DNA of 64,000 bases from an uncultured beta proteobacterium. Its GTDB lineage: Bacteria; Pseudomonadota; Gammaproteobacteria; Burkholderiales; Burkholderiaceae_C. The position numbers were made by a program, and so were the translations under genes. The stretch lies in assembly GCA_963791595.1 (NCBI GenBank), contig CAWBTF010000014.1:455417-519416 (forward strand). Direction: 5' to 3'. The notes under the pieces were generated by a model. The model was not told where the DNA came from. It worked only from the letters and a program-made list of their open reading frames with translations, and did not search any database. Shown piece by piece: positions 6,917 through 45,362 of the stretch (position 1 is the stretch's first letter; each line of letters opens with the position of its first letter).

Positions 6917-6976
6917 GTGTTCGGCCTTCCGTCTCTTGGCGCAACGCAGCTCGGTGCCGCGCCGCGCGCCCCGATG

Positions 6977-25475: not shown

Positions 25476-26083
25476 GGCGAAGCGACAAGCCCTTCTCCCC
25501 GGCAAGCGAGCGCAATCGCGAGCCGATCCTCGCCGTGTTGCGCGAGCATTTCATCGACGTGCGCAGCGTGCTCGAAGATCGGCAGCGGGACCGGCCAGCA
25601 TGCAGTGCACTTCGCGCAGGCGCTGCCGCACCTGCTCTGGCAAGCGTCGGACCGCGCCGAGAACCTGCCCGGCATTCGCCGGTGGCTCGGTGATGCCGAA
25701 CTGCCCAACACGCCCGAGCCGATCGAGCTCGACGTGAACGGCCGCTGGCCGGACGCGACGTTCGACGCCGTGTTCACCGCGAACACGCTGCACATCATGG
25801 GCTGGAGCGAAGTCGAACGATTCTTCGAGATGCTGCCGCGGGTGATGAACCCCGAGCGCGCTGGTCACCGTCTACGGCCCCTTCAACCGCGGCAGCGCGT
25901 TCACGAGCCCGAGCAACGCGAGCTTCGACGCCGACCTGAAACGCGCCGACCCGAAGCGCGGCATTCGCGACATCGAGGCGGTGGACCGGCTCGCGGCGCA
26001 GGCCGGCTTGAGCATGATCGACGACCGCGCCATGCCGGCCAACAATGCCTGCATCACCTGGCGGCTGCGACCTGGGGTTTGAC
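25472..26083 (+). CDS. DUF938-family class I SAM-dependent methyltransferase-like protein; two frame breaks; ATGA overlap with the upstream stop
   Basis: three consecutive in-order segments in three frames: MRRSDKPFSPASERNREPILAVLREHF…, …QHAVHFAQALPHLLWQASDRAENLPGIRRWL…, …VTVYGPFNRGSAFTSPSNASFDADLKRADPKRGIRD…. Confidence 0.6.
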
Positions 26084-26157
26084 GCAGTTCGGCGGCGAGT
26101 CCGCGCGGCTAGACTTGTTGCAGCGCCAATCCGATCCTGGACGCGAGTGAGCAACCC

Positions 26158-27455
26158 ATGGACCTGCAGCAGCTTAGTCGAACCCGACCGCGTCCACAAA
26201 CGCGTCTACACCGACCCGGAAATCTTCGACCTGGAAATGGAGCGCATCTGGGAGCGCACCTGGGTCTACTGCGGCCACGAGTCGCAGGTGAAGGCGCCCG
26301 GCGACTATCACGCGCTGAACATCGGCCGCCAGCCGATGATCATGGTGCGGCAGGCCCAAGATGCGGGCAGCATCCAGGTGCTCTACAACCGCTGCCCGCA
26401 CCGCGGCGTGCAGATCGTCGGCAACCAGCGCGGCAACACCGGCAGCGCGTTTGTGTGCTCGTACCACGCGTGGAGTTTTCACCTCGACGGCAGCGTGCGC
26501 GCGATTCCGCTGGCCAAGGGCTACGAAGGCACGCGCATGACGCGCGACAACCCCGATTGCGCGATGAAGCGCGCCGCGCGCGTGCGAGAGCTATCGCGGC
26601 TTCGTGTTCGCGAGTTTGGTCGACGAAGGCCCGGGCCTGCTCGAATTCCTGGGCGAAGCGAAGATCGCCTTCGACGACATGTGCGACCGCTCGCCCGTCG
26701 GCGAAGTGGAAGTCGTGCCGATCTGCCACCGCGTGATCCAGCAATCGAACTGGAAGTTCTTCATGGAGAACCAGCTCGACGCGCTGCACCCGTCCGTCAC
26801 GCACCAGTCCACCGGCATCTCGGCCGGGCGCGTGGAAAAGCGCCTGAAGGCCGAACGAGGCGCCGCGCCGCTTTACTACCACTACCTGTCCACCTTCGCA
26901 TCGAGCTTCGAGCTGTGGGACAGCGTGCAGACCATCAACTTCCCGCGCGGCCACGGCATCCTCAAGGCCTACATGGGGCTGCGCCCGCAAGACCCGGACA
27001 CGCTGGAATACGAAGCGCTGCTCGAGAAGGCCTACGGCAAGGAGAAGATGGAGGAGTACCTGTCGCGCAGCATCCACCATGTGCTGGTGTATCCGTACCT
27101 CTCGGTGCAGTCGCCCTTGCAGCAGCTGCGTTGCCTGCGGCCGATTTCGGCCGACAAGACGCTGTCGGAAATCTGGCACTTCAGGTTGAAGGGCGCGCCC
27201 GAGGCGATCTACCGCCGGAGCCTGTGGTACTACAACCTCGTCAATTCACCCGCGACGATGATCAACGCCGACGACCTGGAGAACTGGACCAAGGGCCAGT
27301 GGGGCTTGATGTCCAACGGCGGCGACTGGGTGAGTTTTCACCGCTACTTCGGCGACGACCGGGTTGAAGCCGGCGTCACCTACTCGAACCACGGCACGTC
27401 GGAAGCGGTGATGCGCAACCAGTTCGCGGCGTGGACGAAGTACCTCACAGCGTGA
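26158..27455 (+). CDS. aromatic ring-hydroxylating dioxygenase alpha subunit (Rieske [2Fe-2S] plus catalytic domain); two frame breaks near 26175 and 26585
   Basis: Rieske motif CPHRG…CSYHAW; mononuclear-iron catalytic domain in ORF 26604-27455. Confidence 0.8.
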
Positions 27456-27469
27456 AGGGAAGGTGCATC

Positions 27470-28144
27470 ATGAGCATCTCGAAAAACATCCCCAGCGCCG
27501 GCCCCGACTTCGAACACCTGCTCGCGCAGGATGTCGTGATCGAAGCCGATGCCAGCGCGCAGCGCACCGGTGCCCAGGCGATCGAGCCCGACCACTCGCC
27601 GCGCGCGCCGCAGGCCGGCGCGGCAGTCGCAGCGGCTGCCTTGCCGCAGCCTGGCCTGCTCGCGGGCGCCGACGTACAACGCGAAGTCGAGCAGTTCCTC
27701 TACCGTCAAGCAGAGCTGCTGGACGGCAAACACTGGCAGGCGTGGATCGACCTGTTCGACGCGCAAGGCGTGTACTGGATGCCGGTGACGCCCGAGCAAA
27801 CCGAATGGGAAGGCTCGCCGTCGATCTTTGCCGAAGACAAGCTGATGATGGAAATCCGCAAGGGCCGGGTGTCGCACCCGAACGCGTGGTCGCAGGCGCC
27901 GATGTGGGAGACGAACCACCTCGTCAGCCATGTCGCGATCGAAGCGGTGAACGGCGCGGAAATCCAGGTGCGCTCGCGCTTTCACATGATGGAGCTGCGG
28001 CGCGACACGGTGCGCCACTTTGGCGGGCGCTATCGGCATACGCTGGTGCGGGGGTCTGATGGCGGCTTGCGAATCAAGCTGCAGCGCGTCGACTTGTTCA
28101 ATGGGCAGGCGCCGTTCGACTATGTGTTGCAGGTGTGGGTGTGA
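27470..28144 (+). CDS. aromatic ring-hydroxylating dioxygenase beta subunit (NTF2/SnoaL fold) with an unusually long Ala-rich N-terminal extension
   Basis: C-terminal 160 aa …EVEQFLYRQAELLDGKHWQAWIDLFDAQGVYWMP…; RBS GAAGGGAAGG upstream of the ATG. Confidence 0.8.
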   Translation: MSISKNIPSAGPDFEHLLAQDVVIEADASAQRTGAQAIEPDHSPRAPQAGAAVAAAALPQPGLLAGADVQREVEQFLYRQAELLDGKHWQAWIDLFDAQGVYWMPVTPEQTEWEGSPSIFAEDKLMMEIRKGRVSHPNAWSQAPMWETNHLVSHVAIEAVNGAEIQVRSRFHMMELRRDTVRHFGGRYRHTLVRGSDGGLRIKLQRVDLFNGQAPFDYVLQVWV

Positions 28145-28273
28145 AGAAGGCAACGAACACGAAGGGCTCGCTTGACCCGCGAGGCGACATGCCGCTGCGC
28201 CGACGCGACATCGCCGCAGGCAAGCTTGTGGCGCGAGAACCCAGCGCGAGTGGCGCCGTGCTCTCGGAAGCAT

Positions 28274-28651
28274 CTAGGATTCGCCGACCCTCTTTGTTAG
28301 CTCATTGAGCTGCGCCCGCAACGCCCTGCGCCCGGCACTGTTCGTCGCGCGCCAGGCCTGCAGCGCAAGCGCCAGAAACTGCTGCTCCGTCGCCGACACC
28401 CCCACCGGCGCGCGTTCCTCATCCAGCCACCCCTGCAGCTTGCCGCAGTGCTGCTCGATCTGCCGCGCGAGCTTGTCGCCGATCGGCCGTGACGACTTGA
28501 TCTGGCTCCACATGCTGGGCGAAATCTCCAGGCTCGCGGCAAACGCCTGCTCGAGACCCTTGGGCGAATCGCCCGCGGCCAGCGCCTTTTCGGCGAAGGC
28601 CTGAAACAGCGCCAATGCGTTCTGTCGTCGTGTGACGGTGATGTTGGCCAA
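28274..28651 (-). CDS. hypothetical small DNA-binding-like protein (phage CII/Cro-like HTH region …ISPSMWSQIKSSRPIGDKLARQIEQ…)
   Basis: 125-aa ORF divergent from the promoter/small-ORF unit; resemblance to the lambda cII VDKSQISRWKRD segment is by eye only. Confidence 0.45.
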   Translation of the reverse strand: MANITVTRRQNALALFQAFAEKALAAGDSPKGLEQAFAASLEISPSMWSQIKSSRPIGDKLARQIEQHCGKLQGWLDEERAPVGVSATEQQFLALALQAWRATNSAGRRALRAQLNELTKRVGES

Positions 28652-28713
28652 GTCGTGTTGTGTGCAGGAAGCAACGCATTCGAGCGCCGCGATCGCGCCA
28701 TTGTGGCAGGGGG

Positions 28714-28742
28714 TTGACGGCCTCGTAAAGACTCTTTACAGT
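28714..28742 (+). promoter_or_regulatory. sigma70-like promoter TTGACG-N17-TACAGT
   Basis: near-consensus -35 with optimal 17-bp spacing to a 4/6 -10; about 60 nt upstream of a GTG-initiated small ORF preceded by AAGGA. Confidence 0.45.
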
Positions 28743-28802
28743 GCGCCACTTCGCTCGAAAGAGCATTGTTTGCAACCCAGAATTTCGAAGGACCGCATCG
28801 TC

Positions 28803-28985
28803 GTGAAACCCAATCGCATCGTCGGAACGTTCCGCCCCGCCCAGGGACGGGTCGGATTCGCGCCTGCCTTGGCGATGCAGCCTTGGGTCGCCTGCGGCAC
28901 GGCAATGCAACTGTCGTTCGCGACGAGCTATCTGCCGCTTGATCGACATGAGGATCGATTGCACCCGGGGGAGGGAAGCGCGTAG
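28803..28985 (+). CDS. hypothetical small protein (60 aa, GTG start) between the promoter and the intrinsic terminator; alternatively the 5' part of a small RNA
   Basis: frame of ORF 28632-28985; RBS AAGGA 9 nt upstream; no homology recognised. Confidence 0.3.
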   Translation: MKPNRIVGTFRPAQGRVGFAPALAMQPWVACGTAMQLSFATSYLPLDRHEDRLHPGEGSA

Positions 28986-29011
28986 GCGCACCTTCCAACT
29001 CTGTTCGCAGA

Positions 29012-29050
29012 GGCCCGGGCCCGATGAGGACCCGGGCCTTTTTGTTTTCT
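29012..29050 (+). terminator. rho-independent terminator GGCCCGGG-(loop)-CCCGGGCC followed by TTTTTGTTTT
   Basis: 8-bp GC stem plus U-tract, the only strong example on this strand in the region. Confidence 0.65.
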
Positions 29051-29385
29051 GCCTTGGTCTTTCGTTTTCACTCGGCACGCGCATCGGCGCATGCCGGCGA
29101 TCGATGGATCGCGAGGCCGCGAATGCGGTCGCTCTTTAACAATTTGCCGCGAGACGACTTCGGTACTGGCCGAGGCTTCGTCTCGCATTGTTTGCCGGGC
29201 ACGGTTGCGTCTGCGAGGGCGCTCCGTGCCTGAGCGAACCACTTCGGGTGTGCCCATGCACTCCGCTGCCGCATGCCATGGTGTTGGCGGCGCGGGATGT
29301 GCGCGGCCCCAGGCCGGGGCCACATGCAGCGAGACACCACATCCGACGGGATGCTCGCGTGTGGGCACAGCCGAAGTGGAATCTT

Positions 29386-29462
29386 GTCGCGTTCGTCTAG
29401 CCGGCCCAGGACGCCACCCTTTCAAGGTGACTACGCGGGTTCGAGACCCGCACGCGACGCCA
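29386..29462 (+). tRNA. tRNA-Glu (anticodon TTC)
   Basis: cloverleaf folded by hand; D-arm GTCTAGCCGGCCCAGGAC almost identical to E. coli tRNA-Glu; 27-43 mismatch; encoded CCA. Confidence 0.8.
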
Positions 29463-29551
29463 GTCAAGGAACCCTCGTCGAGCTTGTGCTTCGAGGGCGG
29501 AAATCGGCCGCAACGATTGGGCGGCGCCGGAACCCGTGCCCGGATGGAATT

Positions 29552-29627
29552 GCCTCGTTAACTCAGCGGCCAGAGTGCCGGCCTGTCTAGCCGGAAGCCG
29601 CGGGTTCGATCCCCGCACGAGGCGCCA
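29552..29627 (+). tRNA. tRNA-Asp (anticodon GTC)
   Basis: acceptor GCCTCGT/ACGAGGC; anticodon loop CTGTCTA; T-arm GCGGG-TTCGATC-CCCGC; CCA. Confidence 0.8.
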
Positions 29628-29637
29628 GGACAAATCT

Positions 29638-29713
29638 GCCGAGATAGCTCAGCCGGTAGAGCGGCGCGTTGAAGGCGCGTGCGTCGGGGGATCGAAGCCC
29701 TCTCTCGGCACCA
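29638..29713 (+). tRNA. tRNA-Phe (anticodon GAA); atypical G37 and T-loop ATCGAAG (A54)
   Basis: acceptor GCCGAGA/TCTCGGC; D-arm TAGCTCAGCCGGTAGAGC; anticodon loop TTGAAGG. Confidence 0.7.
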
Positions 29714-29719
29714 GACAGA

Positions 29720-29797
29720 ACCTCGTTAGCTCAGTGGAATCAGAGCATCGGCCTACGAAGCCGAGGGTCGCACGTTCGAGTCGTGCACGAGGTGCCA
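29720..29797 (+). tRNA. tRNA-Arg (anticodon ACG)
   Basis: acceptor ACCTCGT/ACGAGGT; anticodon loop CTACGAA; T-arm GCACG-TTCGAGT-CGTGC; CCA. Confidence 0.8.
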
Positions 29798-29802
29798 CTC
29801 AT

Positions 29803-29878
29803 CTCGGTGTGGCGCAGATGGCAGCGCGCGTGCTTCGGGAGCACGGGGTCGCAGGTTCGAGACCTGCCACCGAGACCA
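29803..29878 (+). tRNA. tRNA-Pro (anticodon CGG)
   Basis: acceptor CTCGGTG/CACCGAG; anticodon loop TTCGGGA; T-arm GCAGG-TTCGAGA-CCTGC; CCA. Confidence 0.8.
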
Positions 29879-29899
29879 TTCGACGACGTGCGCTTGGGC

Positions 29900-29973
29900 G
29901 TGGCCGTAGCTCAACGGCAGAGCTGCGGGATGTGACCCCGCCGGTGCCGGTTCGATTCCGGCCGGTCACCCCC
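29900..29973 (+). tRNA. tRNA-His (anticodon GTG); no encoded G-1 (C at -1), C73 discriminator, A32, and a 3' end CCCCA rather than a clean CCA
   Basis: acceptor GTGGCCG/CGGTCAC; D-arm TAGCTCAACGGCAGAGC; anticodon loop ATGTGAC; T-arm GCCGG-TTCGATT-CCGGC. Confidence 0.6.
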
Positions 29974-29990
29974 AAGCGCACACAACCCAC

Positions 29991-30066
29991 GCGTCGCGAA
30001 CTCGAGCGGCAGAGTACCGGGCTTTTAACCCGGCGTGTCAGGGTTCGAGCCCCTGGCGACGCACCA
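29991..30066 (+). tRNA. tRNA-Lys (anticodon TTT)
   Basis: acceptor GCGTCGC/GCGACGC; anticodon loop CTTTTAA; T-arm CAGGG-TTCGAGC-CCCTG; CCA. Confidence 0.8.
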
Positions 30067-30067
30067 C

Positions 30068-30153
30068 CCCCTCGTGGCGGAATCGGCAGACGCGCCGGTC
30101 TCAGAAACCGGTGCCCAAAGGGCATGTCCGTTCGACCCGGACCGAGGGGACCA
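30068..30153 (+). tRNA. tRNA-Leu (anticodon CAG), type II with a long variable arm
   Basis: acceptor CCCCTCG/CGAGGGG; anticodon loop CTCAGAA; variable arm TGCCCAAAGGGCAT; T-arm GTCCG-TTCGACC-CGGAC; CCA. Confidence 0.8.
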
Positions 30154-30157
30154 ATGA

Positions 30158-30233
30158 TGCGGTGTAGTCGAGTGGCCTCAGACACCAGCCTTTGAAGCTG
30201 GGGACGTTGGTTCAAATCCAACCGCCGCTGCCA
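30158..30233 (+). tRNA. tRNA-Gln (anticodon TTG); U1-U72 mismatch at the top of the acceptor stem and a 3-bp D-stem
   Basis: anticodon arm CCAGC-CTTTGAA-GCTGG; T-arm GTTGG-TTCAAAT-CCAAC; CCA. Confidence 0.65.
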
Positions 30234-30274
30234 TCTACAGACCAAGGGACCGGCTTCAGAAAGGAGGCCACGCC

Positions 30275-30850
30275 ATGCACCATCGACAAAGTGGTCACGT
30301 CCTGCAGCTCGACATCCAGGGCACGCCGCAGGCGTGGATCTCGCTCGAGCACGCGGCCGTGCATGTGGCCACGCACTCGGTGGCGTGGGTCGATGGCGAT
30401 GGGCCATTGGCCACGCTGCGCGGCGGCTTCAATGTCGCGCACGGCCGGCAGTCTTGCATCGACGTGCACCCGATCATGGCGCTGCACGGTGCGTCGAAGG
30501 TCAACCTGTTCGACGTGGCTCCGGCGTTCAGCAAGGCCAAGCTGTTCCGGCGCGACCGGATGACTTGCGCGTACTGCGGCCAGCGCTTTCCCGAGCGCGA
30601 TCTGCAATGCGAACACATCGTGCCGCAGTCGCGCGGCGGGCGCTGGAGCTGGATGAACCTGGTGACGGCGTGCGCGCTGTGCAACGGCCGCAAGGCCGAC
30701 CGCACGCCGGAGCAGGCGCGCATGCCGCTGCTGTACCTGCCGTATGTGCCGAGCCGGTTTGAAGACTTTCTGCTCGAAGGCCGGAACATCCGCGCCGACG
30801 TGCATGACTGGCTGGCCGCGCGCCTGCCGAAGGGATCGCGCCTGAGTTGA
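30275..30850 (+). CDS. HNH endonuclease with an ~100-aa N-terminal domain of unknown function
   Basis: HNH zinc-finger motifs CAYCG…CEHIVPQSRGG…NLVTACALCNGRK; strong SD AAAGGAGG 8 nt before the ATG; 41 nt downstream of the last tRNA. Confidence 0.85.
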   Translation: MHHRQSGHVLQLDIQGTPQAWISLEHAAVHVATHSVAWVDGDGPLATLRGGFNVAHGRQSCIDVHPIMALHGASKVNLFDVAPAFSKAKLFRRDRMTCAYCGQRFPERDLQCEHIVPQSRGGRWSWMNLVTACALCNGRKADRTPEQARMPLLYLPYVPSRFEDFLLEGRNIRADVHDWLAARLPKGSRLS

Positions 30851-31009
30851 TTCATTCAATTCGGGCGCCAACGAGTCTGCTGCGAAAAGCGAACGCTCAC
30901 AGGTCAGGGGTTCGGGCCGAGTTCAAGACAAGGCCCGCCCCGCCGGTGTGCGGCACCCGGCTTCGGCCGTGGGTGCTGCACATGCCGCGCCGCTGGAAAC
31001 AGCCGATGC

Positions 31010-31066
31010 GGGCCGTCAATGGATTGCACCGCGAGGTGCCGGGTTCGATCCCCGGATGGCCCTCCA
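31010..31066 (+). ncRNA. 57-nt tRNA-like minihelix: a 7-bp acceptor stem (GGGCCGU/AUGGCCC), a GCACC-GCGA-GGUGC tetraloop hairpin, a canonical T-arm (CCGGG-TTCGATC-CCCGG), discriminator U and CCA; no D-arm or anticodon arm
   Basis: hand folding; either an internally deleted tRNA remnant or a tRNA-like domain of a larger ncRNA. Confidence 0.4.
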
Positions 31067-31140
31067 CTGGATAGCTCAGATGGGTAGAGCAACGACCTGA
31101 TAAGTCGTGTGTCGCGGGTTCGACTCCCGCTCCAAAGCAC
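31065..31140 (+). pseudogene. tRNA-Ile(GAT)-like pseudogene: intact D-arm, anticodon arm (ACGAC-CTGATAA-GTCGT) and T-arm, but the acceptor-stem strands (CACTGGA vs TCCAAAG) do not pair; a tRNA-Cys-like anticodon hairpin (CTGGA-CTGCAAA-TCCAG) follows at about 31146-31162
   Basis: hand folding of the sequence between the HNH gene and the SPFH gene. Confidence 0.45.
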
Positions 31141-31432
31141 TGGACTGCAAATCCAGCTATTCGAACGGTCGAAAGACCACCGCCGAACGCGTGCAGGGGG
31201 TGGGTCGCACCCAGGGCAGGTTCGCTTGCCCGAGGTGCGCGAAGCCCACCGCACGTCAGCCCTGGCGGCCCGGCATGGAACCCGCCCGGCCCGCGCCCAC
31301 GGCCAGCCGAAGTTGCGTCTCCAAGACGCGACCGACGCGCACCGTGACGCCCGGTCCACGGCACTCCGTGCCCACCGCCACCGCTGTAACGGCACCCTTT
31401 TCAAACGACGCATGACCACAAGGAGAACGATC

Positions 31433-32569
31433 ATGCAATTCAAGCGAGTCACTGTGAAGAAGTACGAGCGCGGCGTGTTGCTGCGCAATGGCGACTTCGA
31501 GCGCGTGTTGCAACCCGGCACGCACTGGCTGTTCGCGGCCATCGACCAGCTGCGCGTCGAGACCTTCGCGCTCGAACAGCCGGCGTTCACGCATGGCCTC
31601 ACCGACTACCTGATGGCCAAGGAGCCCGAGGTCGTCGCGGCCGAGTTCGTTCGCGTGGAGTTGAGCGAAACCCAGGTCGGCCTGCGCACCGAGAACGGCG
31701 TGCTCGTCGAGGTGCTGGCCCCCGCGACGCGGCGCCTGTACTGGAAGGGCCAGGTCGACGTGCGCGTGGATGTCATCGACATCGCCGCGACGGCCGAAGT
31801 GCCTGCCGCGGTGGTGGCACGCCTGGTGCAGACGCAACTGCGGCAACGCGCGGTTGCCGGCCTGGCCGGTGTGCTGCAAGTGCAGGTTCCCGAGCATGGC
31901 GCGGGCGTGTTGTGGGTCGACGGCAAGGTTCAGCAGTTGCTCGGCCCCGGCTCGTACGCGTTCTGGAAGTTCAACCGCAATGTCGCGGTGGAAGCCGTCG
32001 ACCTGCGCTTGCAGGCGCTCGAAGTCACCGGCCAGGAAATCCTGACGAGCGACAAGGTGAGCCTGCGGTTGAACCTGTCGGCGACCTGGCGCTACACCGA
32101 TGTGCTGAAGGCCTTCACGCAACTGCAAAAGCCCGCGGAACACCTGTACCGCGAGCTGCAGTTCGGCCTGCGCTCGGCGGTCGGGACACGCTCGCTGGAC
32201 GAGTTGTTGGAGAACAAGACGGTGATCGACGAAGTCGTCACCGCTCAAGTGAAGGCCAAGCTCTCGGGCTATGGCCTGCAACTCGACGGCGTGGGCGTGA
32301 AGGACATTGTGTTGCCCGGCGAGATGAAGACGATCCTGGCGCAAGTGGTCGAGGCGGAGAAGGCGGCGCAAGCCAACGTGATCCGCCGGCGCGAGGAAAC
32401 CGCGGCCACGCGTTCCCTGCTCAACACGGCCAAGGTGATGGAGGGCAACCCCGTCGCTCTGCGCATGAAGGAGCTGGAGACGCTGGAACGCGTGGCCGAG
32501 CGCATCGACAAGATCTCCGTGTTCGGGGGTCTGGACCAGGTGCTCAACGGGCTGGTGAAGCTGCAGTAA
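31433..32569 (+). CDS. SPFH/band-7 (stomatin/prohibitin/flotillin/HflKC) domain protein
   Basis: 378 aa; RBS AAGGAG upstream of the ATG at 31433; N-terminal hydrophobic segment and a long coiled-coil C-terminus typical of SPFH proteins. Confidence 0.75.
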   Translation: MQFKRVTVKKYERGVLLRNGDFERVLQPGTHWLFAAIDQLRVETFALEQPAFTHGLTDYLMAKEPEVVAAEFVRVELSETQVGLRTENGVLVEVLAPATRRLYWKGQVDVRVDVIDIAATAEVPAAVVARLVQTQLRQRAVAGLAGVLQVQVPEHGAGVLWVDGKVQQLLGPGSYAFWKFNRNVAVEAVDLRLQALEVTGQEILTSDKVSLRLNLSATWRYTDVLKAFTQLQKPAEHLYRELQFGLRSAVGTRSLDELLENKTVIDEVVTAQVKAKLSGYGLQLDGVGVKDIVLPGEMKTILAQVVEAEKAAQANVIRRREETAATRSLLNTAKVMEGNPVALRMKELETLERVAERIDKISVFGGLDQVLNGLVKLQ

Positions 32570-32687
32570 TGGCCCACCCCCGAAGCGGCTTACGCCGCTC
32601 CCCCTCAAGGGGGCAAACACCAGCGGACCGGCAAAGCCGGATCCGCGGTGTTCGCTTGAAATGTCATGCATCATGGAGTGAGAAATC

Positions 32688-33914
32688 ATGGAAACGAACT
32701 ACATTGAAGAAGCCGTTCCCGGCGGCGTGCCGGTGAAGATGTGGACGCGCGGCGTTCCCATCGAAGACGAGGCGAAGCGCCAACTCACGAATGCGGCGCG
32801 CCTGCCGATCGTGTTCAAGCACATCGCGGCGATGCCCGACGTTCACTTCGGCATCGGCGCGACCGTCGGCTCGGTGATCCCCACGCTGCGCGCCATCATT
32901 CCGGCCGCGGTGGGCGTGGACATCGGCTGCGGCATGATGGCCGCGAAGACGACGCTGACGGCGGACGACCTGCCCGACAACCTGGGCCCGCTGCGCGCGG
33001 CAATCGAGCGCGCCGTGCCGCACGGCCGAGCGCCGGGCTCGCGCGATCCGGGTGCGTGGGGGAACTCACATAAGGCGCCCGGCTCGGTGAACACGGCATG
33101 GGCGCAGCTCGAACCCGAGTTCACCGAGCTGTGCCGCGACTTCCCCAAGCTCGCGAAGACGAACCACATCCAGCACCTGGGAACGCTGGGCAGCGGCAAC
33201 CATTTCATCGAGGTGTGCCTGGACGAGGAAGGCTTCGTCTGGTTCATGCTGCACTCGGGCTCGCGCGGCGTGGGCAACGCGATCGGCACGATGTTCATCG
33301 AGCTCGCCAAGCAGGATGCGCTGCGCAACAACATGAACCTGCCCGACCGCGACCTCGCGTACTTCGAGGAAGGCGCGCGCTACTTCGGCGACTACGTGCG
33401 CGCGGTCGGCTGGGCGCAGCGCTTCGCGGCGATCAACCGCGAAACGATGATGAAGCGCGTGATCGACGCGGCGAAGACCGTGATCGCGAAGAGCTTTCAA
33501 AGCCACATCGAAGCGGTGAACTGCCACCACAACTACGTGCAGAAGGAGACGCACTTCGGAGAAGACGTGTACGTCACGCGCAAGGGCGCGGTGAGCGCGA
33601 AGGCCGGGCAGCTGGGAATCATTCCCGGCAGCATGGGCGCGCGCAGCTACATCGTGCGCGGCAAGGGCAACGCGGACAGCTTCGAGAGCTGCTCGCACGG
33701 CGCAGGCCGCGTGATGAGCCGCGGTGAAGCGAAGCGTCGCTTCACCCTGGCCGACCACCGCGCCGCGACGGAAGGCGTGGAGTGCCGCAAGGACAAGGAC
33801 GTGATCGACGAAACGCCCGCCGCGTACAAGGACATCGACGCGGTGATGCAGGCGCAGCGCGACCTGGTCGACGTGGTGCACACCTTGAAGCAGGTGGTGT
33901 GTGTGAAGGGATAG
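32688..33914 (+). CDS. rtcB: RNA-splicing ligase RtcB (3'-phosphate/5'-hydroxyl RNA ligase), 408 aa, closely E. coli-like; no adjacent rtcA or rtcR
   Basis: METNYIEEAVPGGVPVKMWTRGVPIEDEAKRQL…MPDVHFGIGATVGSVIPT…CSHGAGR conserved metal- and GMP-binding motifs. Confidence 0.92.
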   Translation: METNYIEEAVPGGVPVKMWTRGVPIEDEAKRQLTNAARLPIVFKHIAAMPDVHFGIGATVGSVIPTLRAIIPAAVGVDIGCGMMAAKTTLTADDLPDNLGPLRAAIERAVPHGRAPGSRDPGAWGNSHKAPGSVNTAWAQLEPEFTELCRDFPKLAKTNHIQHLGTLGSGNHFIEVCLDEEGFVWFMLHSGSRGVGNAIGTMFIELAKQDALRNNMNLPDRDLAYFEEGARYFGDYVRAVGWAQRFAAINRETMMKRVIDAAKTVIAKSFQSHIEAVNCHHNYVQKETHFGEDVYVTRKGAVSAKAGQLGIIPGSMGARSYIVRGKGNADSFESCSHGAGRVMSRGEAKRRFTLADHRAATEGVECRKDKDVIDETPAAYKDIDAVMQAQRDLVDVVHTLKQVVCVKG

Positions 33915-33997
33915 CTTCGCCCAGACTCGGGCCCGTTGTGTTTGCAGCGGGCCCGTTTTTCTGGGGAGTCCGCCGTCGTTCACCCGGCGACCGTCGC

Positions 33998-36052
33998 TCA
34001 CGCCGACGTTGCTGCCGCCACCTCTACCCGCGCCTCGAACGTCGATTGACCTGCTGAAAAAGCGAATGCATCGACAGCGCAGTCGGGCAGCACGGGCGCG
34101 GCCTCGGTCAGCGTGTTGAGCTGTGGCCAGCCGTCGCGCAGCCACAGCGTGCCGGCGGGAATACGCTCGGTCACATGGGCACGGCCGTGCAGTTCGCCGC
34201 GTTGATTGAAGACGCGGATCGGCGCGCCGTCGATGACGCCACGTGCCTTCGCGTCCGCCGGCGCGACCCACACGTTCGGCTCGGCTTCGCGCCGCGCGAG
34301 CGTCGGCAGTTCGCGGCCGTTGTTGTAGAAGCCGTGGAAGTGGGTGAGCGTGCGGCCTTGGGTCAGCACGAGTGGATGAAGGGCGTTGTCGTCAGCCGGC
34401 ACCGGTGCATCGAATGTCGGCAGTGCAGGCAGCCCGAGATCGCGTGCCTTCGTGGACACGAATTCGAGCTTGCGCGACGCGGTATCGAACTGCAGCGTCG
34501 GGTAGGCGACGTGTGACACGTTCATCGGCACAAAGCCGCCGGCGGCGCGCAGTGAAGCGACCGTGGCGCGGCCGGTACACGGGTGGTCGAGCACCGTATT
34601 CACCATCGCTTCTTCATCGGCCCAGGGGTGAAAGTCCTTCAAGCCGAGCTGCTGCGCGAGTTCGGTCAACACGCGGTACATCGACCGCGTCTGGCCCGGT
34701 GGCGCAAGCGCCGGTTCCATCAGGTAGAGATGCGTGTGCGTCGCCTTGCAGCCGAGTTCTTCGAGCCACGCCGTGCCGGGCAGCACCAGGTCGGCGAACT
34801 GCTGCGCGGTGTGATTCAGGAACAGGTCGTGGCTGACGATCAGCTCGGTGCGCTGCAAGCCTTGCGCCGCGGCGGCTGCATCGGGAAATGACGACAGCAT
34901 GTTCGAGCCCATCTGGAACAGCGTGCGCACGCGGCCTTCGCGCAGTTTCGCCACCACGTCGGACATCTGGTTCGGCCAGGCGCTGCCGCTCGCGCGGCGT
35001 TCCGGCGCAATGATGCTGCCCAAGCCCCGCCCATGCGCCGCGCTGCCGTGGCGCGGGCCGAAGCCGCTGCCGGGGATGCCGAGGTTGCCGGTGAGGCCCG
35101 GCAGGCACGCAATCGCGCGGCTCGCTTGCCAGCCGTTCGCGCCCTTGTGCATCGAGCTGCCGCCGAGCACGATCATCGCGGGTTTCGTTACCGCGTAGCG
35201 CCGCGCCAGCTCGACGATGCGCATCGCAGCGATGCCGGTCACGCCTTCGGCCCAGGCTGGCGAAAACGGCTTCACATGCTCGGCGAGTGCCTCGAAACCG
35301 AGCGTGTGCTGCGCAACGAACGCCGCGTCGTGCAGCTGCTCGGCGCAGATCACGTGGGCCAGTGCGAGGGCAAGCGCCGTATCGGTGCCGGGGCGAATCA
35401 GCAACACGTCGTCCGACTTGGCGGCGGCTTCGGTGTGGCGCACGTCGATCGTCACGACGTGGGCGCCACGTTTCTTTGCGGCGAGCAGATGCCGCGCCGT
35501 GTTCGGTTGGCTCGCGAGGTTCGCCGCCCACAAGACGATGAGCTTTGAGTGCTCGCCCATGTCTTCCTTCGTGTTCGTCTCGAGCACGCCGGTGAGCGCG
35601 AGGCCGAACGCGCCCAGCCCCCAGCAGATCATCGTCGGGTTCCAGAACTGGCTGCCGTGGATGTTGGCAAAGCGCGCCATCAGTTGCGGCCCGATGCGCG
35701 TGCCGTAGCTCGTCGTGAAGATGCCGTGGCCGGGCCAGAACGCGGTGGCTTGCGACGGAGCGCTTTGCATCGACGCGACGATGCGTTGATACGCCTCGTC
35801 CCAACTCGCACGCCGAAACGGCTCGCTGCGCCGATCGCGAATCAGTGGGTGCAGCAGCCGCGCCGGGTTGCCGATGATCTCGCGCGAGGCCTGGCCGCGG
35901 ATGCACAGGAACCCACGGCTGTCGGGGTTGTCGGGGTCGCCTTTCACGCCGAGCAATTCGCCGCCCCGCACCTCGGCCAGCATGCCGCACAGCGTGGGGT
36001 GGCAGTTCATCGGGCACATCGTGCGCACAGTTTGGGTTTGCAATTCGCTCAT
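33998..36052 (-). CDS. molybdopterin-dependent oxidoreductase (MopB superfamily, formate dehydrogenase / assimilatory nitrate reductase-like catalytic subunit)
   Basis: N-terminal 4Fe-4S motif CPMNCHPTLCG…C; 684 aa. Confidence 0.8.
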   Translation of the reverse strand: MSELQTQTVRTMCPMNCHPTLCGMLAEVRGGELLGVKGDPDNPDSRGFLCIRGQASREIIGNPARLLHPLIRDRRSEPFRRASWDEAYQRIVASMQSAPSQATAFWPGHGIFTTSYGTRIGPQLMARFANIHGSQFWNPTMICWGLGAFGLALTGVLETNTKEDMGEHSKLIVLWAANLASQPNTARHLLAAKKRGAHVVTIDVRHTEAAAKSDDVLLIRPGTDTALALALAHVICAEQLHDAAFVAQHTLGFEALAEHVKPFSPAWAEGVTGIAAMRIVELARRYAVTKPAMIVLGGSSMHKGANGWQASRAIACLPGLTGNLGIPGSGFGPRHGSAAHGRGLGSIIAPERRASGSAWPNQMSDVVAKLREGRVRTLFQMGSNMLSSFPDAAAAAQGLQRTELIVSHDLFLNHTAQQFADLVLPGTAWLEELGCKATHTHLYLMEPALAPPGQTRSMYRVLTELAQQLGLKDFHPWADEEAMVNTVLDHPCTGRATVASLRAAGGFVPMNVSHVAYPTLQFDTASRKLEFVSTKARDLGLPALPTFDAPVPADDNALHPLVLTQGRTLTHFHGFYNNGRELPTLARREAEPNVWVAPADAKARGVIDGAPIRVFNQRGELHGRAHVTERIPAGTLWLRDGWPQLNTLTEAAPVLPDCAVDAFAFSAGQSTFEARVEVAAATSA

Positions 36053-41465: not shown

Positions 41466-41678
41466 GAGGCCGAACGCCTGCGCTTTGGGCTCGCGGGCAT
41501 CGTCAAGCCGGACCGGGCAATGCCTCGCGCAGCATCTGTTTCATCAACTTTCCATTCGCATTGCGCGGCAGCGGCGAATCGCTCCACGTGATTGTCTCGG
41601 GAACCTTGTAGTCGGCGAGCAGCGCGGCGCAGTGGCTGCGCACCGCGGCGGCGTCGCGTGTCGCGTCCGGCGCGTAGA
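41405..41678. repeat. left copy of a 274-bp direct duplication flanking the IS (covers the last 61 bp of livF, the intergenic region and the 3' end of the acyl-CoA synthetase gene)
   Basis: matches 43654-43927 except for 2 substitutions (G/A and T/C). Confidence 0.85.
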
Positions 41679-43653
41679 CCCGACTTCCGCGCTTTTCCGC
41701 CCGCTTTACCCGCTCAGTCGTTGTGAATCAATGACTTATGTTCGCCGGGCACTACGTTTTTCGGTCTCGGGGGTGTGGCCGATGTAGTGCCCGCAGGTGG
41801 GGTTGGCGATGGGAGTCTTCGATCAGCTGCGATCCACCTCGACATCGAGATTGCGTTTGAGGCCGAACGCCTTGTAGATGCGCGCCGCGTCGTGCCCGAA
41901 GACGCTGGGCAGGCGGTACTTGGCCTTCGTGGTCTTGTGCTGCACGATGCTGGCCTGCACGTCGTGCAGGACGGCGCGGATGCGCTGCACGCTCATCGAG
42001 CCTTGCGCCAGCCCGATGCGCTGCTGGGCGTGGCGAGTCAGCGCGAAGGCCAGGTAGCACAGACCGATGTGGGCTTGGATTCGCTCGGGCTTGAAGTGGT
42101 AGATCGGGCGCACGGCCAAGCCGTGCTTGAGCGTGCGAAACGACTCCTCGATCACCCACAGCCGACGGTAGCGCGCCAGCAGTTCGCGAGCCCGGCTCGT
42201 GCGGTCGTTGGTGACGATGGCGTGCAGCCCGTCCCAGGCCGCGTCGTTGGCGATTCTGTCCTCGTCCAGCACGAACGCGCCGCCCGTGTCGGCCTGCTCC
42301 ACATAGCGCAGGTAGCCCGAGTTGGTGATCAGCTTTTGCGCGTTAGGCTTGGCGGGCTTGATCTCGCCGGTCTTCTTGTCCACGCGCTGGCTGGGGCCCA
42401 GCTTGGCGCTCAGGCGCTCAAGCAGCGCTTGGCGGTCGGCCCGATCCTTGTGCGCGCGCTTGGAGCTGTAGGTGACGATCAAGCGTCGGCCCTGCCAGTC
42501 GAACTCGCGCACCCAAACCAGATCGCCCTCGACCTCGCACGGCGCGGCCAGCGCCGTTTGCAGCACCTGTGCCTGCTCGGCCGCCTTCAGGCTCCTGCGC
42601 AGCGGCATGGCCACCACGTAGCTCCAGGGTGCGGCCTCCAGCGCGGTCAGGTTGGCCTTGCTGCACAGCGCCCGGTCGGCGACGAAGCTGACGCGCTCGA
42701 TCTTCAAACTCTGCTGCCAACTCCGCATGCACGCCAGCAGCGTACTCACCTCGGCCGTGTTCCCGGGGAACAGCTCGTAGCCGATGGGCAGCCCGTCGGC
42801 GTCGGTGGCCAAGGCCAGCACCACCTGCGTGCAGTGGTACTTCTGGTCCTTGGAGTAGCCGAAGGCGCGCAGCGTGTCGGCATCCACGCTCTCGAAGTAC
42901 AGCGTGCTCACATCGAACAGCATCACCTGCGCCGCGCCGCCAATCAGCGACGCGGTGGCCTCGTGCACGATTGCCTTCAAGCGATCGAGCCGCTTGTGCA
43001 GCGCATCCATCAGCCGGTACAAGCGGTCCAGCGGGTAGGCGCGACCGTAGTGCGCATCGAGCTCGGCGGCGCTGCCGCGCTTGGACGCCGGGGCCATGAC
43101 GCGGGCGATAACCAAGTCGCGCAGCATGGCCGTGCCGTGCACGCCCAGGATCCGGTCGAAGTGCAGGTAGTCGAACAGGTGGCCCAGCACCTCATGGGGC
43201 CCTTCCACGCGGCGCGCCACCTCGGCGACCTCGGCCAAGCGCACCTGGTCGGGCGCGGCCACCGAGGCCAGCGTCTGGCGCGGCGGGCGCCCGCCGCGGC
43301 GCACCGGGGCAGACTCGAACAGCGCCCCGGCATTGAGCCGCTCGGCGAGGCTGCGCGAGATGAACTCCTCGGCCATCGCGCGCAGCTTGATCTCTTCGTC
43401 GGCATCCAGCGCGATGCCGATGTGGCGCACGATGCGTTGCGTGACGCGATCGCCCTTTCGCGCGGACTCGACAACCTGCACGCTGCGGCGCGGGGAGTTG
43501 GGCGAGGACTTGATGCGAACGAACACGCCGCCACGTTACGCCACGATGGACCGCGACGCAAGCGGTATTAATAACTAGCTAGGCACTACAACTCCAAAAC
43601 TCGATTCCTCACCTATGAAGAACGGGCTCGGGGTGGGCCAAAACCGCCGAAGT
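41679..43653 (-). mobile_element. insertion sequence, IS4 superfamily / IS1634-like, 1975 bp, with imperfect ~20-bp terminal inverted repeats (CCCGACTTCCGCGCTTTTCCGCCC … GGGCCAAAACCGCCGAAGT)
   Basis: a single 567-aa DDE transposase ORF; element ends are defined exactly by the flanking 274-bp direct repeats. Confidence 0.8.
41823..43526 (-). CDS. IS4-superfamily (IS1634-like) DDE transposase, 567 aa, GTG start
   Basis: MFVRIKSSPNSPRRSVQVVES… N-terminus and overall length and organisation typical of IS1634-family transposases. Confidence 0.75.
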   Translation of the reverse strand: MFVRIKSSPNSPRRSVQVVESARKGDRVTQRIVRHIGIALDADEEIKLRAMAEEFISRSLAERLNAGALFESAPVRRGGRPPRQTLASVAAPDQVRLAEVAEVARRVEGPHEVLGHLFDYLHFDRILGVHGTAMLRDLVIARVMAPASKRGSAAELDAHYGRAYPLDRLYRLMDALHKRLDRLKAIVHEATASLIGGAAQVMLFDVSTLYFESVDADTLRAFGYSKDQKYHCTQVVLALATDADGLPIGYELFPGNTAEVSTLLACMRSWQQSLKIERVSFVADRALCSKANLTALEAAPWSYVVAMPLRRSLKAAEQAQVLQTALAAPCEVEGDLVWVREFDWQGRRLIVTYSSKRAHKDRADRQALLERLSAKLGPSQRVDKKTGEIKPAKPNAQKLITNSGYLRYVEQADTGGAFVLDEDRIANDAAWDGLHAIVTNDRTSRARELLARYRRLWVIEESFRTLKHGLAVRPIYHFKPERIQAHIGLCYLAFALTRHAQQRIGLAQGSMSVQRIRAVLHDVQASIVQHKTTKAKYRLPSVFGHDAARIYKAFGLKRNLDVEVDRS

Positions 43654-43927
43654 CGGGAGCTCCGCGGCGCTGGATGCGGACCGCGGCGTGTGGGCGCGGC
43701 ATCTGGGGATTTGAGAGGCCGAACGCCTGCGCTTTGGGCTCGCGGGCATCGTCAAGCCAGACCGGGCAATGCCTCGCGCAGCATCCGTTTCATCAACTTT
43801 CCATTCGCATTGCGCGGCAGCGGCGAATCGCTCCACGTGATTGTCTCGGGAACCTTGTAGTCGGCGAGCAGCGCGGCGCAGTGGCTGCGCACCGCGGCGG
43901 CGTCGCGTGTCGCGTCCGGCGCGTAGA
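43654..43927. repeat. right copy of the 274-bp direct duplication flanking the IS
   Basis: see the left copy. Confidence 0.85.
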
Positions 43928-45362
43928 GAAACGCATGCACGCGCTCACCCAGCACCGGGCAAGGCCGGCCGATCACTGCGGCCTCCACCACCCCCGGCAA
44001 CGCCATCAGCGCGTTCTCCACCTCGACCGAATAGACCTTGAACCCGCCGCGGTTCAGCATGTCTTTCTTGCGGTCGAAGATGCGCACGAAACCTTGCGCG
44101 TCGATCGAGCCCAGGTCGCCTGAATGCCAGTGGCCGGCAGTGAATGAGCTCGCGGTCGCGGCGGCGTTGTCCCAGTAGCCGGGCACGACCATCGGCCCGC
44201 CGATCCACAGCTCGCCGGTTTCGCCGGCCGGCACTTCAACGCCTTGTTCGTCCATCACGACGATGTGCGCGCAAGGCAAGACGACGCCCACGCTGTCGGC
44301 GTGCTCGCGCGTCAGGCCGGCGGGCATCATCGTCGCGGGCGAGGTGGTTTCGGTGGCGCCGTAGGCGTTGAGCAGCACCAGCTTGGGCACCGCTTCGCTG
44401 AGCGCGTCGATCGTCGCCACCGGCATCGGCGCGCCGCCGTAGCCGCCGATGCGCCAACTGCCGCAGGTCGCGCTGCGCGAAGCCGGGCGTCATCAGGCAG
44501 AGCGTGTACATCGCCGGCACCATCAGCGTGTGCGTGATGCGTTCGCGCTGCAGCAGCTCCACGAAGTCGGGCGCCTTGAATGCGGGAACGACGATCACGC
44601 GCGCCACCCACGTTGACCATCGCCAGGATGATCGCGACCAGCCCCGTCACATGGCTCGCCGGCACGGCAAGCGCGGAGCGGTCACCCGGCTGCAGCTTCA
44701 TGCACGACTGGTAGTGCAGCACCGAATGCGCGAGGTTGAAGTGCGTGAGCATCGCGCCCTTCGGGTTGCCGGTCGTGCCCGAGGTGTAGAGGATGACGGC
44801 GGTGGCGTGTTCGCTCACCGCCGCGGCCTCGGGCGCGGCGCCGGGTTCGGCGGCGAGCTCGGCCAAGGGCATCGCGCCCGGCGCGGCACCGACCACGATG
44901 CGCAGCGCAAGCGAGGGCACTTCGGTCTCGCTCGGCACACGCTCGGCCAGATTCAGCGTCGAACACGATGCCCTTGGCCGTGCATTGGTTGAGCATGTAG
45001 GCCAGCCCGGCACGCGCTTCGCGCACGCCGATCGGCACCGCGATCGCACCGAGCCGCTGCAAGGCGAACAGCACGAACACGAACTCGGCGCGGTTGCCCA
45101 TGAACAGCGCGACGCGGTCGCCCGCCCCAACGCCACGCTTGCTGCAGACCGGCGGCGATGCGCGCGGCCTGCGTATCCAATTCGGAATACGTCCAACGCC
45201 GGCCGTCGCACACCAGCGCCTCTTGCGCGCCGCGCTCCCGCACCGCGCGCGCGAGCATCGCGTGCACGCTCGCGGGCGCCGCACAAAGGCGCGCACCAGG
45301 CGGTCGGGCTGCGGCGCTTCGATGCGCGTCGCGCCGACCGGGTAGTCTTGCCAGTGGTTCAT
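43752..45362 (-). pseudogene. AMP-dependent synthetase/ligase (acyl-CoA synthetase family), disrupted by at least 5 frame breaks; its 3' end lies inside the duplicated segment next to the IS
   Basis: at least 6 consecutive segments in alternating frames (MNHWQDYPVGA…; …LVCDGRRWTYSELDTQAARIA…; …GDRVALFMGNRAEFVFV…; …ILYTSGTTGNPKGAMLTHFNLA…; …ARVIVVPAFKAPDFVELLQRERITH…; …GELWIGGPMVVPGYWDN…NGKLMKRMLREALPGLA). Confidence 0.7.

Follow-up and report, generated by a model that had tools for sequence, protein, structure and literature searches.

Anatomy of an apparently acquired operon that may supply spare tRNAs and RtcB-based RNA repair in an uncultured beta proteobacterium

The window analyzed here is a stretch of 64,000 nucleotides from an uncultured beta proteobacterium (GenBank assembly GCA_963791595.1, contig CAWBTF010000014.1, positions 455,417 to 519,416 of the forward strand). 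It carries a compact unit of 5.9 kb in which an array of nine tRNA genes is joined to genes for an HNH endonuclease, an SPFH/Band-7 protein and the RNA ligase RtcB. The unit is probably an acquired operon that supplies spare tRNAs together with RtcB repair. Its most likely function would be an inducible response to translational or tRNA damage, as suggested by its anatomy, its conservation and the precedent of Anabaena. An initial annotation of the window had already proposed an acquired module with this repair logic, which fits both the anatomy described below and published work. Furthermore, the nine-gene array that it placed on one strand was recovered at the same coordinates by both ARAGORN and Rfam, and the HNH gene after the array, followed by SPFH and a full-length RtcB, was found again as Pfam matches (Table 1).

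Extent, insertion slot and spread of the unit

The limits of the unit were obtained from two relatives, L087 and L088, which match the flanks of the window at 82–84% nucleotide identity. Blastn synteny with both is lost at window positions 28144–28146 and regained at 34014–34017. The gene order in these relatives is GNAT, Mo-oxidoreductase, insertion slot, ring-hydroxylase beta and ring-hydroxylase alpha, and the slot holds other cargo: one relative has a PPDK_N gene there, the other a pair of small genes. A wider set of loci was assembled by a protein search with the HNH endonuclease, using one genome per species; relatives occurred in 225 species, and the best 80 loci were examined. All 80 belong to Burkholderiales, namely the Rubrivivax, Piscinibacter, Rhizobacter, Ideonella and Aquabacterium group plus Variovorax, Ramlibacter and Caldimonas. 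Nucleotide homology to 80 other loci sets in sharply at about 28305 and ends at 33910–33914, and the flanking genes differ in nearly all 80 species, being common only within 11 small groups. Moreover, a conjugative plasmid, RPME01 of Methylibium petroleiphilum PM1 (NC_008826), has the regulator gene, an array of 27 tRNAs and the HNH gene; for megaplasmids of Variovorax and Polaromonas, the evidence consists of a single matched gene, a close HNH homolog. Because synteny is broken at 28146/34014, flanks are unshared across species and homologs reside on plasmids, the segment 28147–34013 is, as judged from sequence comparison, a horizontally acquired unit found on chromosomes and conjugative megaplasmids of Sphaerotilaceae and related Burkholderiales. 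The island limits first given, 29386–33914, were therefore too narrow, the unit extending from about 28147 to 34013.

It can be observed that nearly all loci share one architecture, in which a divergent gene for a 125-aa protein is followed by the array, HNH, either a tRNA-like element with Band-7 or Ro60, and RtcB. Family counts rest on the 46 loci with enough flanking sequence. At least three tRNA genes lie upstream of HNH in 37 of these, the 125-aa regulator gene is present in 36, and RtcB lies downstream in 34 (16 with Band-7, 12 with Ro60 and 6 with neither); Band-7 without RtcB is seen in two further loci. Culturable organisms are among the carriers, for example Aquabacterium humicola, Rhizobacter sp., Ideonella azotifigens, Rubrivivax rivuli and Methylibium PM1.

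Table 1. Coordinates of the features of the unit, numbered from the first letter of the window.
Feature	Coordinates	Strand	Evidence or remark
Whole inserted module, 5.9 kb	28147..34013	.	blastn synteny breaks
Divergent Cro/CI-like helix-turn-helix (HTH) regulator "up125", 125 aa	28274..28651	-	conserved upstream of arrays
Sigma-70-type promoter TTGACG-17-TACAGT	28714..28742	+	sole promoter-like + strand site of module
Perfect palindromic operator (candidate) GTAAAGACTCTTTAC	28725-28739	+	fills promoter spacer, overlaps -10 at 28737-28742
Conserved leader open reading frame (ORF), 60 codons, C-terminus ...LDRHEDRLHPGEGSA then stop	28803..28985	+	in-frame ORF kept across loci
Intrinsic terminator, candidate attenuator	29012..29048	+	GGCCCGG...CCGGGCC + T-run
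Conserved hairpin, invariant loop GGTACTGGCC	29149..29186	+	multi-locus alignment A3
140-nt structured RNA element, closed by 17-bp stem	29239..29379	+	inverted repeat I6; RNAalifold
tRNA array, nine genes	29386..30233	+	ARAGORN, Rfam
Glu-TTC	29386-29462	+	
Asp-GTC	29552-29627	+	
Phe-GAA	29638-29713	+	
Arg-ACG	29720-29797	+	
Pro-CGG	29803-29878	+	
His-GTG	29900-29972	+	
Lys-TTT	29991-30066	+	
Leu-CAG	30068-30153	+	
Gln-TTG	30158-30233	+	
Array-associated HNH endonuclease, 191 aa	30275..30850	+	Pfam HNH_5, E 6e-17
Structured RNA of ~530 nt with Band-7-associated tRNA-like elements	30863..31393	+	28-locus alignment A2
tRNA-like domain 1: 7-bp acceptor stem, hairpin, T-arm, 3' CCA	31010..31066	+	A2 helices 8-11 covary; sequence reading
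tRNA-like domain 2: D, anticodon, T arms, 4-bp acceptor stem	31067..31134	+	ARAGORN (Ile-GAT); Rfam tRNA 51.8 bits
Optional anticodon-stem-loop-like hairpin CTGGA-CTGCAAA-TCCAG	31140..31156	+	13/28 loci, variable loop
SPFH/Band-7 (stomatin-like) protein, 378 aa	31433..32569	+	Pfam Band_7, E about 1e-32 to 5e-33
RtcB RNA ligase, 408 aa	32688..33914	+	Pfam RtcB, E 7e-129
Intrinsic terminator closing the operon, 12-bp stem + TTTTT	33928..33960	+	inside inserted segment

Some further observations concern the surroundings of the unit. The only mobility gene among the about 45 ORFs scanned against Pfam is an unrelated transposase of the DDE_Tnp_1 type, belonging to an insertion sequence (IS) element at 41823–43526 (-) that disrupts an AMP-binding (acyl-CoA synthetase-like) gene; its flanks at 41522–41678 and 43771–43999 both match one stretch of L087. 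The ring-hydroxylase alpha gene (26045–27455) has its Rieske and catalytic domains in two overlapping ORFs, an apparent frameshift split, and PntB (2574–4044) is likewise divided between two ORFs. An intact alpha subunit of 433 aa is encoded in L087, and the two split genes may be pseudogenes or reflect long-read assembly indels. In three other loci a canonical tRNA-Phe gene is located 6.5–9.6 kb upstream of HNH (L005 347–422, L025 412–487, L038 3518–3593), a hint that the module may sit there in islands integrated beside tRNA-Phe.

The tRNA array and its control region

tRNA genes were called with ARAGORN and with Rfam RF00005 (gathering score 29). Ten calls were made by both tools, at 37.8–62.9 bits in Rfam, comprising the nine array genes and an Ile-GAT call at 31065–31138, which belongs to the large structured RNA described below. 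The array genes have nine different anticodons and are separated by spacers of 1–89 nt. All nine fold as cloverleaves, and the CCA end is encoded in eight. The tRNA-His gene is placed inside an 11-bp extension of the acceptor stem, GTGCGCTTGGG / CCCAAGCGCAC (29888–29981), and is without a clean CCA; C is found at positions -1 and 73, so that no G-1 is encoded. The same odd 3' end is shared by 51 of 55 array copies. Homologous arrays contain 0–23 genes on chromosomes and 27 on the plasmid, with conserved gene order, and because of these greater lengths the array in the window appears to be a reduced derivative. At least 14 slots have been lost from it, for example that of the leading tRNA-Gly, which is gone while its flanks stay. 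Across loci, array tRNA copies show median identities of 76–96% to the window copy, and the array tRNAs are 53–87% identical (medians 61–83%) to housekeeping tRNAs outside the arrays in the same locus set. L005, L025 and L038 carry a canonical tRNA-Phe on the same contig as the array tRNA-Phe, and array tRNA-Phe copies as a whole have a median identity of 72% to the canonical form. Moreover, the stems of tRNA-Glu copies are preserved via compensatory changes. A54 is an unusual conserved trait of the array tRNA-Phe. The notion that the anticodons cover the most used codons was not borne out: across 28 window genes, the nine tRNAs read 36% of codons, and the most frequent ones, GCG, GGC, GTG, GCC and ATC, are unserved.

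Two observations touch the array from outside. A gene for an MnmA-type tRNA 2-thiouridylase (~16950–18060, +) lies on the core chromosome 11 kb upstream, probably by coincidence; MnmA modifies U34 of tRNA-Lys, tRNA-Glu and tRNA-Gln. Within the 27-tRNA array of the Methylibium plasmid (L084), genes for an HD-domain protein and an AlkB dioxygenase are found at 6197–7549, and this AlkB could add the repair of methylation damage to the repair theme.

The unit begins with a divergently transcribed regulator gene, and the regulator that had been noted at its 5' edge was sustained as Cro/CI-like by both a profile and a fold match. No Pfam or NCBIfam family was matched by the 125-aa protein, even at E ≤ 10. 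Its profile matched the N-terminal domain of phage CI in the PDB (7nkv, E 1.3e-3). Database homologs were used as input for structure prediction; the AlphaFold model had a predicted local distance difference test score (pLDDT) of 76.8, and Foldseek returned a Salmonella phage repressor (5d50) first and then XRE-family HTH proteins, all with weak E-values. The fold is an all-helical HTH like that of phage CI/Cro/Rep and not the ribbon-helix-helix (RHH) of TrcR type. The homolog on the Methylibium plasmid is 60% identical. We take the protein to be the putative repressor of the operon, with the palindrome GTAAAGAnTCTTTAC as its predicted site.

A promoter-operator motif in which a few variable positions were allowed gave 53 matches in the loci and the window, the plasmid included, nearly always of the form GTAAAGAnTnTTTAC. 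An intrinsic terminator lies downstream of the promoter at 49 of these 53 sites. The leader ORF is kept in frame at almost every site; its two termini are conserved, and its middle varies in length (indels). Its C-terminus follows the pattern ...LDRxEDxxHPGEGSA before the stop codon, of the (H/N/P)PGEGSA type, and the distance from the leader stop to the terminator stem is 24–33 nt, usually 29. All four synonymous codons are in use for the final Gly and for the final Ala, and because of this synonymous variation the leader peptide itself is probably under selection. The stem of the terminator is invariant in 32 aligned loci and forms in the minimum free energy (MFE) fold. The terminator had been considered to insulate the island from upstream genes; instead, it lies downstream of the unit's own promoter and leader ORF and is thus, by its place in the sequence, internal to the unit, in an attenuator-like position. 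Beyond it are a hairpin with the invariant loop GGUACUGGCC and the 140-nt element. The latter is present in 52 loci, and RNAalifold predicted 47 pairs for it, with compensatory changes in 14. Neither the hairpin nor the 140-nt element has a match in Rfam.

Two other modes of control were considered and rejected. An antiterminator formed through CCGGG/CCCGG complementarity between leader ORF and terminator showed no consistent covariation, and for sigma-54/RtcR control of the window neither RtcR nor, by eye, a TGGCAC-N5-TTGC motif was seen. In one locus (L047) the promoter-operator-leader-terminator unit exists in two copies, at 3933 and 7312.

The HNH gene, the structured RNA and the RtcB cassettes

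The HNH protein has more than 1400 homologs, the best 120 at 81–93% identity, and is 72% identical to its homolog on the Methylibium plasmid. Its HNH domain is 41% identical over 78 aa to that of Anabaena all8564 (BLASTP E 1e-20). HNH homologs are also found beside tRNA arrays on IMG/VR contigs. On one of these viral contigs a homolog of 49% identity is preceded by 11 tRNA genes, and on another there are tRNAs and a tmRNA upstream of the homolog (L089 26–5591, 8001–8537; L091 681–6351).

The region between HNH and Band-7 had been annotated as degenerate tRNA fragments, which are in fact part of a conserved, covarying RNA of ~530 nt. An alignment of the whole interval (A2; 28 loci, 888 columns) demonstrated conservation throughout. 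RNAalifold predicted 127 pairs, with changes on both sides in 61. In this structure 95.5% of cells pair, against 35–47.5% with the partners slid by 1–3 columns; double-change cells number 317, against 31–38 in the slid controls; and none of 500 shuffles reached the observed values. Apart from tRNA, no Rfam family was matched. From 5' to 3', the RNA comprises a 5' domain, two abutting tRNA-like domains, an optional hairpin, a GNRA hairpin and a long 3' domain. The Rfam tRNA match of domain 2 is restricted to model positions 4–67. The anticodon loop of this domain is hypervariable, with 14 sequences in 28 loci and an entropy of 0.82 compared with 0.17–0.18 in the D and T arms, and its stem covaries. 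This RNA is the counterpart of the predicted "b7a-tRNA". A role for the "anticodon" of this element in filling a gap in the array was rejected, given that L005 has Ile-GAT in both places.

The adjacent protein had been described as an SPFH membrane protein. The Band_7 domain was confirmed (match to stomatin 3bk6 in the PDB, E 5.5e-20), and the membrane part of the description was not supported, no convincing transmembrane helix being found in a protein that looks soluble. Its true start is taken as the ATG at 31433 and not the upstream end of the long ORF, because a conserved ribosome-binding site, AAGGAGAAC, precedes this ATG. The gene is situated 118 nt upstream of rtcB. In RtcB, the catalytic motifs for metal binding and guanylylation are intact (MPDVH, GVDIGCG, GSGNHF, HSGSRG, HHNY and SHGAGR). 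The view that this RtcB is solitary, lacking rtcA and rtcR, agrees with the searches: tblastn gave no match for RtcR or for Ro60 (TROVE) in the window, and RtcA was absent from about 45 ORFs scanned against Pfam, a set that did not take in every small ORF. YrlA and YrlB were also sought and rejected in the window, where scores of 18.9–22.4 bits are at chance level against a gathering score of 69.

In sister loci, Band-7 and its RNA are swapped for Ro60, Y RNAs and RtcR. The Ro60-RtcB spacer there contains YrlA-/YrlB-like RNAs (60.5 bits, E 3e-13 in sister locus L001), and a divergent RtcR is found in many Ro60 loci (L015-type). Because Ro60/Y RNA loci and Band-7 loci share the array, HNH and regulator, the same backbone has evidently been joined to either RtcB cassette. 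On this point the initial annotation was not supported: in the sister loci, the array-linked RtcB occupies a conventional RtcR-Ro60-Y RNA context.

Several additional genes were seen near these cassettes. In L018 (12339–13268) an ORF of 309 aa without Pfam or NCBIfam match is inserted between Band-7 and RtcB, and Band-7-RtcB spacings of ~1 kb, seen as gaps alone, exist in L019, L027, L033, L041, L049, L051 and L057. L002 (4332–5403, 8060–9208 and 14335–14540) has a PcfJ gene inside its array, MC5/CTD9 conflict-system genes upstream, and C4 antisense and isrK RNAs, which are P4-like satellite signatures, directly after RtcB. In the window itself, 15 kb from the tRNA/RtcB module, a protein of 511 aa with Schlafen AlbA_2 and HATPase_c_4 domains is encoded at 12891–14426 (+); bacterial Schlafen nucleases cleave tRNA in phage defense (PMC13056530).

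Proposed mechanism, alternatives and relation to known systems

In the proposed mechanism, a transcript from the single promoter would run through the leader ORF, the terminator, the two RNA elements, the nine tRNAs, HNH, the ~530-nt RNA, Band-7 and RtcB to the strong final terminator. The repressor, together with premature termination, would keep the operon silent. Once translation is impaired, by tRNA cleavage through toxins or defense nucleases or by ribosome inhibitors, repression and termination would be lifted and divergent back-up tRNAs delivered to the cell, of which those with unusual anticodon loops may escape anticodon nucleases. RtcB would reseal breaks with 2',3'-cyclic-phosphate/5'-OH ends, with the SPFH protein and the tRNA-mimicking RNA as possible scaffold or cofactor, in the role of Ro60 and Y RNAs in the sister loci. 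HNH most likely serves the spread or maintenance of the array.

A number of observations weigh against this interpretation. The array tRNAs are probably supernumerary, redundancy in the source strain being deduced from relatives, and arrays shrink to 0–3 genes in some loci, where, given such lengths, they may be dispensable or decaying. Similar to a leader-peptide attenuator, a short ORF, predicted to be translated, lies in the window between promoter and terminator; no antiterminator was seen there in the MFE fold, which shows three independent hairpins, and the idea that the leader senses the array's own codons was rejected, with 21 of 59 codons against a background of 36% and hence no enrichment. 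Furthermore, neither terminal repeats or att sites, including the flanking att-like repeats whose search had been suggested, nor a mobility gene belonging to the unit (integrase, transposase) that would account for its transfer were found.

The alternative with the best prospects is a sharper form of the earlier idea, a dedicated counter-measure against anticodon nucleases, in which the array tRNAs would be resistant isodecoders, the hypervariable RNA a decoy or bait in an SPFH cage, and RtcB the resealing enzyme. Conserved non-canonical anticodon loops speak for it: tRNA-Asp has a pyrimidine at position 37 in 40 of 40 copies, C33 is frequent in tRNA-Gly-GCC and tRNA-Val-TAC, and tRNA-Phe has G37G38. 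Within an RNA that is conserved elsewhere, the greatest variability falls on the anticodon loop of domain 2, whose stem covaries, the optional hairpin offers a second anticodon-stem-loop mimic with a variable loop, and there is precedent in phages (PMC10264068, PMC11555353, PMC11464382). However, the loop variation could be relaxed constraint, many isoacceptors are missing from the array, and the Anabaena data indicate a general translational-stress response and no specific toxin, so we hold this alternative to be possible and somewhat unlikely. A more speculative extension of the preferred operon, regarded as rather doubtful as a whole, would see in it a mobile operon, complete in itself, for a "translation-damage response". 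Sensing would take place in two layers, through the phage-type repressor and through the leader peptide, whose stop codon keeps a nearly constant distance from the terminator. In this extension, the loop of the ~530-nt RNA would act as bait, decoy or specificity determinant in an SPFH/RtcB complex, and the array tRNAs as nuclease-resistant isodecoders. The two sensing layers are not described for tRNA arrays in accessible papers.

The unit might also be selfish cargo, the spread of the array being driven by HNH, like SegB in phage T4, with the array cryptic or decaying and the linkage to RtcB a by-product of a hotspot. The HNH gene is always at the 3' end of the array and is the most conserved gene; arrays differ by deletions, from 0 to 23 genes, the losses in the window copy fitting this pattern; viral contigs bear HNH homologs beside tRNA arrays; and homing has been proposed for all8564 (PMC8421152). 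Against these points, purifying selection is plain in the regulator, the operator, the leader peptide and both structured RNAs, the remaining tRNAs keep their structure via compensatory changes, RtcB follows HNH in 34 of 46 loci through two alternative cassettes, and the insertion sites are not one homing site. We consider this explanation improbable. Less probable still is a remnant of a prophage or integrative element stripped of its other genes. The regulator does resemble phage repressors, HNH homologs also occur in jumbo phages (that of Ralstonia RsoM2USA has no adjacent tRNAs), and P4-like C4/isrK RNAs and PcfJ are near in L002. Nevertheless, no integrase was detected among about 45 window ORFs scanned against Pfam, as the initial annotation had stated, structural genes and att repeats were not found either, and a compact unit of 5–6 kb with sharp ends recurs in dozens of species. 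Finally, an ordinary, vertically inherited housekeeping tRNA operon beside an unrelated rtcB would agree with a GC content of 0.65–0.67, the same as in the rest of the window, and with flanks made of ordinary chromosomal metabolic genes, but it is already contradicted and hardly credible, the module being missing from the same slot in two syntenic relatives, with other flanks elsewhere, copies on plasmids and tRNAs of low identity to the housekeeping copies.

Several systems described before are close to the proposed acquired operon. L-arrays are horizontally spread and, with up to 43 tRNA genes, longer than gene accretion would yield; they have a conserved HNH neighbor and rtcB nearby, and in Anabaena the array, the HNH gene all8564 and rtcB are repressed together and jointly induced by translational stress (Santamaria-Gomez et al. 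2021, PMC8421152). TrcR is the repressor of the Anabaena regulon, which includes a slipin (SPFH) gene (Wang et al. 2023, PMC10272220). Like the array of the window, the Anabaena L-array consists of closely spaced, non-periodic, same-strand tRNAs in a potential operon and is patchily distributed and horizontally spread, with homologous HNH domains; L-array tRNAs are supernumerary, duplicating isoacceptors of the housekeeping set, as those of the window probably are; rtcB and the slipin/SPFH gene are included in the Anabaena response as they are in the window operon. In both cases a repressor site, a predicted one in the window, overlaps the -10 of a sigma-70 promoter, an analogous and not homologous arrangement: the Anabaena operator consists of direct repeats bound by the RHH protein TrcR, whereas the window has a palindrome and a Cro/CI-like HTH protein. 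Further differences are the shorter, reduced array of nine genes, the betaproteobacterial instead of cyanobacterial host, the HNH gene downstream and not upstream of the array, the assembly of all parts, dispersed in Anabaena, in one operon of 5.9 kb, and the addition of a leader ORF with terminator and of extra structured RNAs.

The second precedent is the prediction by Burroughs and Aravind (2016; bioRxiv 10.1101/312249), which in its summary joins RtcB, Band-7 and a "band-7-associated tRNA" and has them interchangeable with Ro60/Y RNA. Intact RtcB, adjacent Band-7/SPFH and an adjacent tRNA-like non-coding RNA are all present in the window. In comparison with that summary, the tRNA-like element here belongs to a ~530-nt covarying RNA with two domains and a hypervariable loop, and a tRNA array, an HNH gene and a regulator of its own are attached to the cassette. 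The RtcR-controlled rsr-yrlBA-rtcBA operon of Salmonella and E. coli likewise combines RtcB repair, a tRNA-mimicking RNA and a scaffold protein. The sister loci carry RtcR, Ro60 and YrlA-/YrlB-like RNAs as this operon does, whereas the window gave no match to Ro60, Y RNA or RtcR and has SPFH in place of Ro60. Phage tRNAs escape tRNA-targeting anticodon nucleases by changes in the anticodon loop (PMC10264068), and cases are known in which RNA ligases support the tRNA set of a phage (PMC10264068, PMC7824862). Phage arrays (the T4 SegB region, T5, jumbo phages) share clustered tRNAs, altered anticodon loops, homing-type nucleases and RNA ligases with the unit, which differs in being chromosomal, repressor-controlled and outside any virus, with no adjacent phage genes. 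Methylibium RPME01 has a homologous regulator, promoter, leader, array order and HNH; its array is three times longer and interspersed with HD-domain and AlkB genes, and the Band-7/RtcB cassette is missing.

The combination had been put forward as undescribed. It is not new, because an array with HNH and rtcB (and slipin) is known in Anabaena (PMC8421152, PMC10272220) and an RtcB-Band-7-tRNA-like system is predicted in the summary of bioRxiv 10.1101/312249. Other aspects were not found described in accessible papers: the union of all parts in one repressor-controlled betaproteobacterial operon; the Cro/CI-type regulator with its palindromic operator, and the leader peptide with its terminator; the 140-nt element, also not in Rfam; for the Band-7-associated RNA, its whole length, its two tRNA mimics and its hypervariable loop; the finding that one and the same array may be followed by a Band-7 or by a Ro60/RtcR cassette; and the conserved odd anticodon loops of array tRNAs.

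Bacterial immunity and inter-bacterial toxins are now known to rely heavily on the cleavage of tRNA, which phages counter with tRNAs of their own. As the present locus indicates, a compact operon circulates among free-living Burkholderiales, and in it spare tRNAs and an RtcB kit with a tRNA-mimicking RNA are placed, with dedicated regulation, behind one promoter. The operon would be a tractable system for the role of SPFH/Band-7 proteins and tRNA-like RNA in the work of RtcB, for the interchange of Ro60/Y RNA and Band-7/RNA, for the switching of tRNA arrays, and for the protection that odd loops (U37, C33) may give to tRNAs. Concrete candidates also emerge from it, the two structured RNAs for new RNA families and the leader peptide for a new regulatory device.

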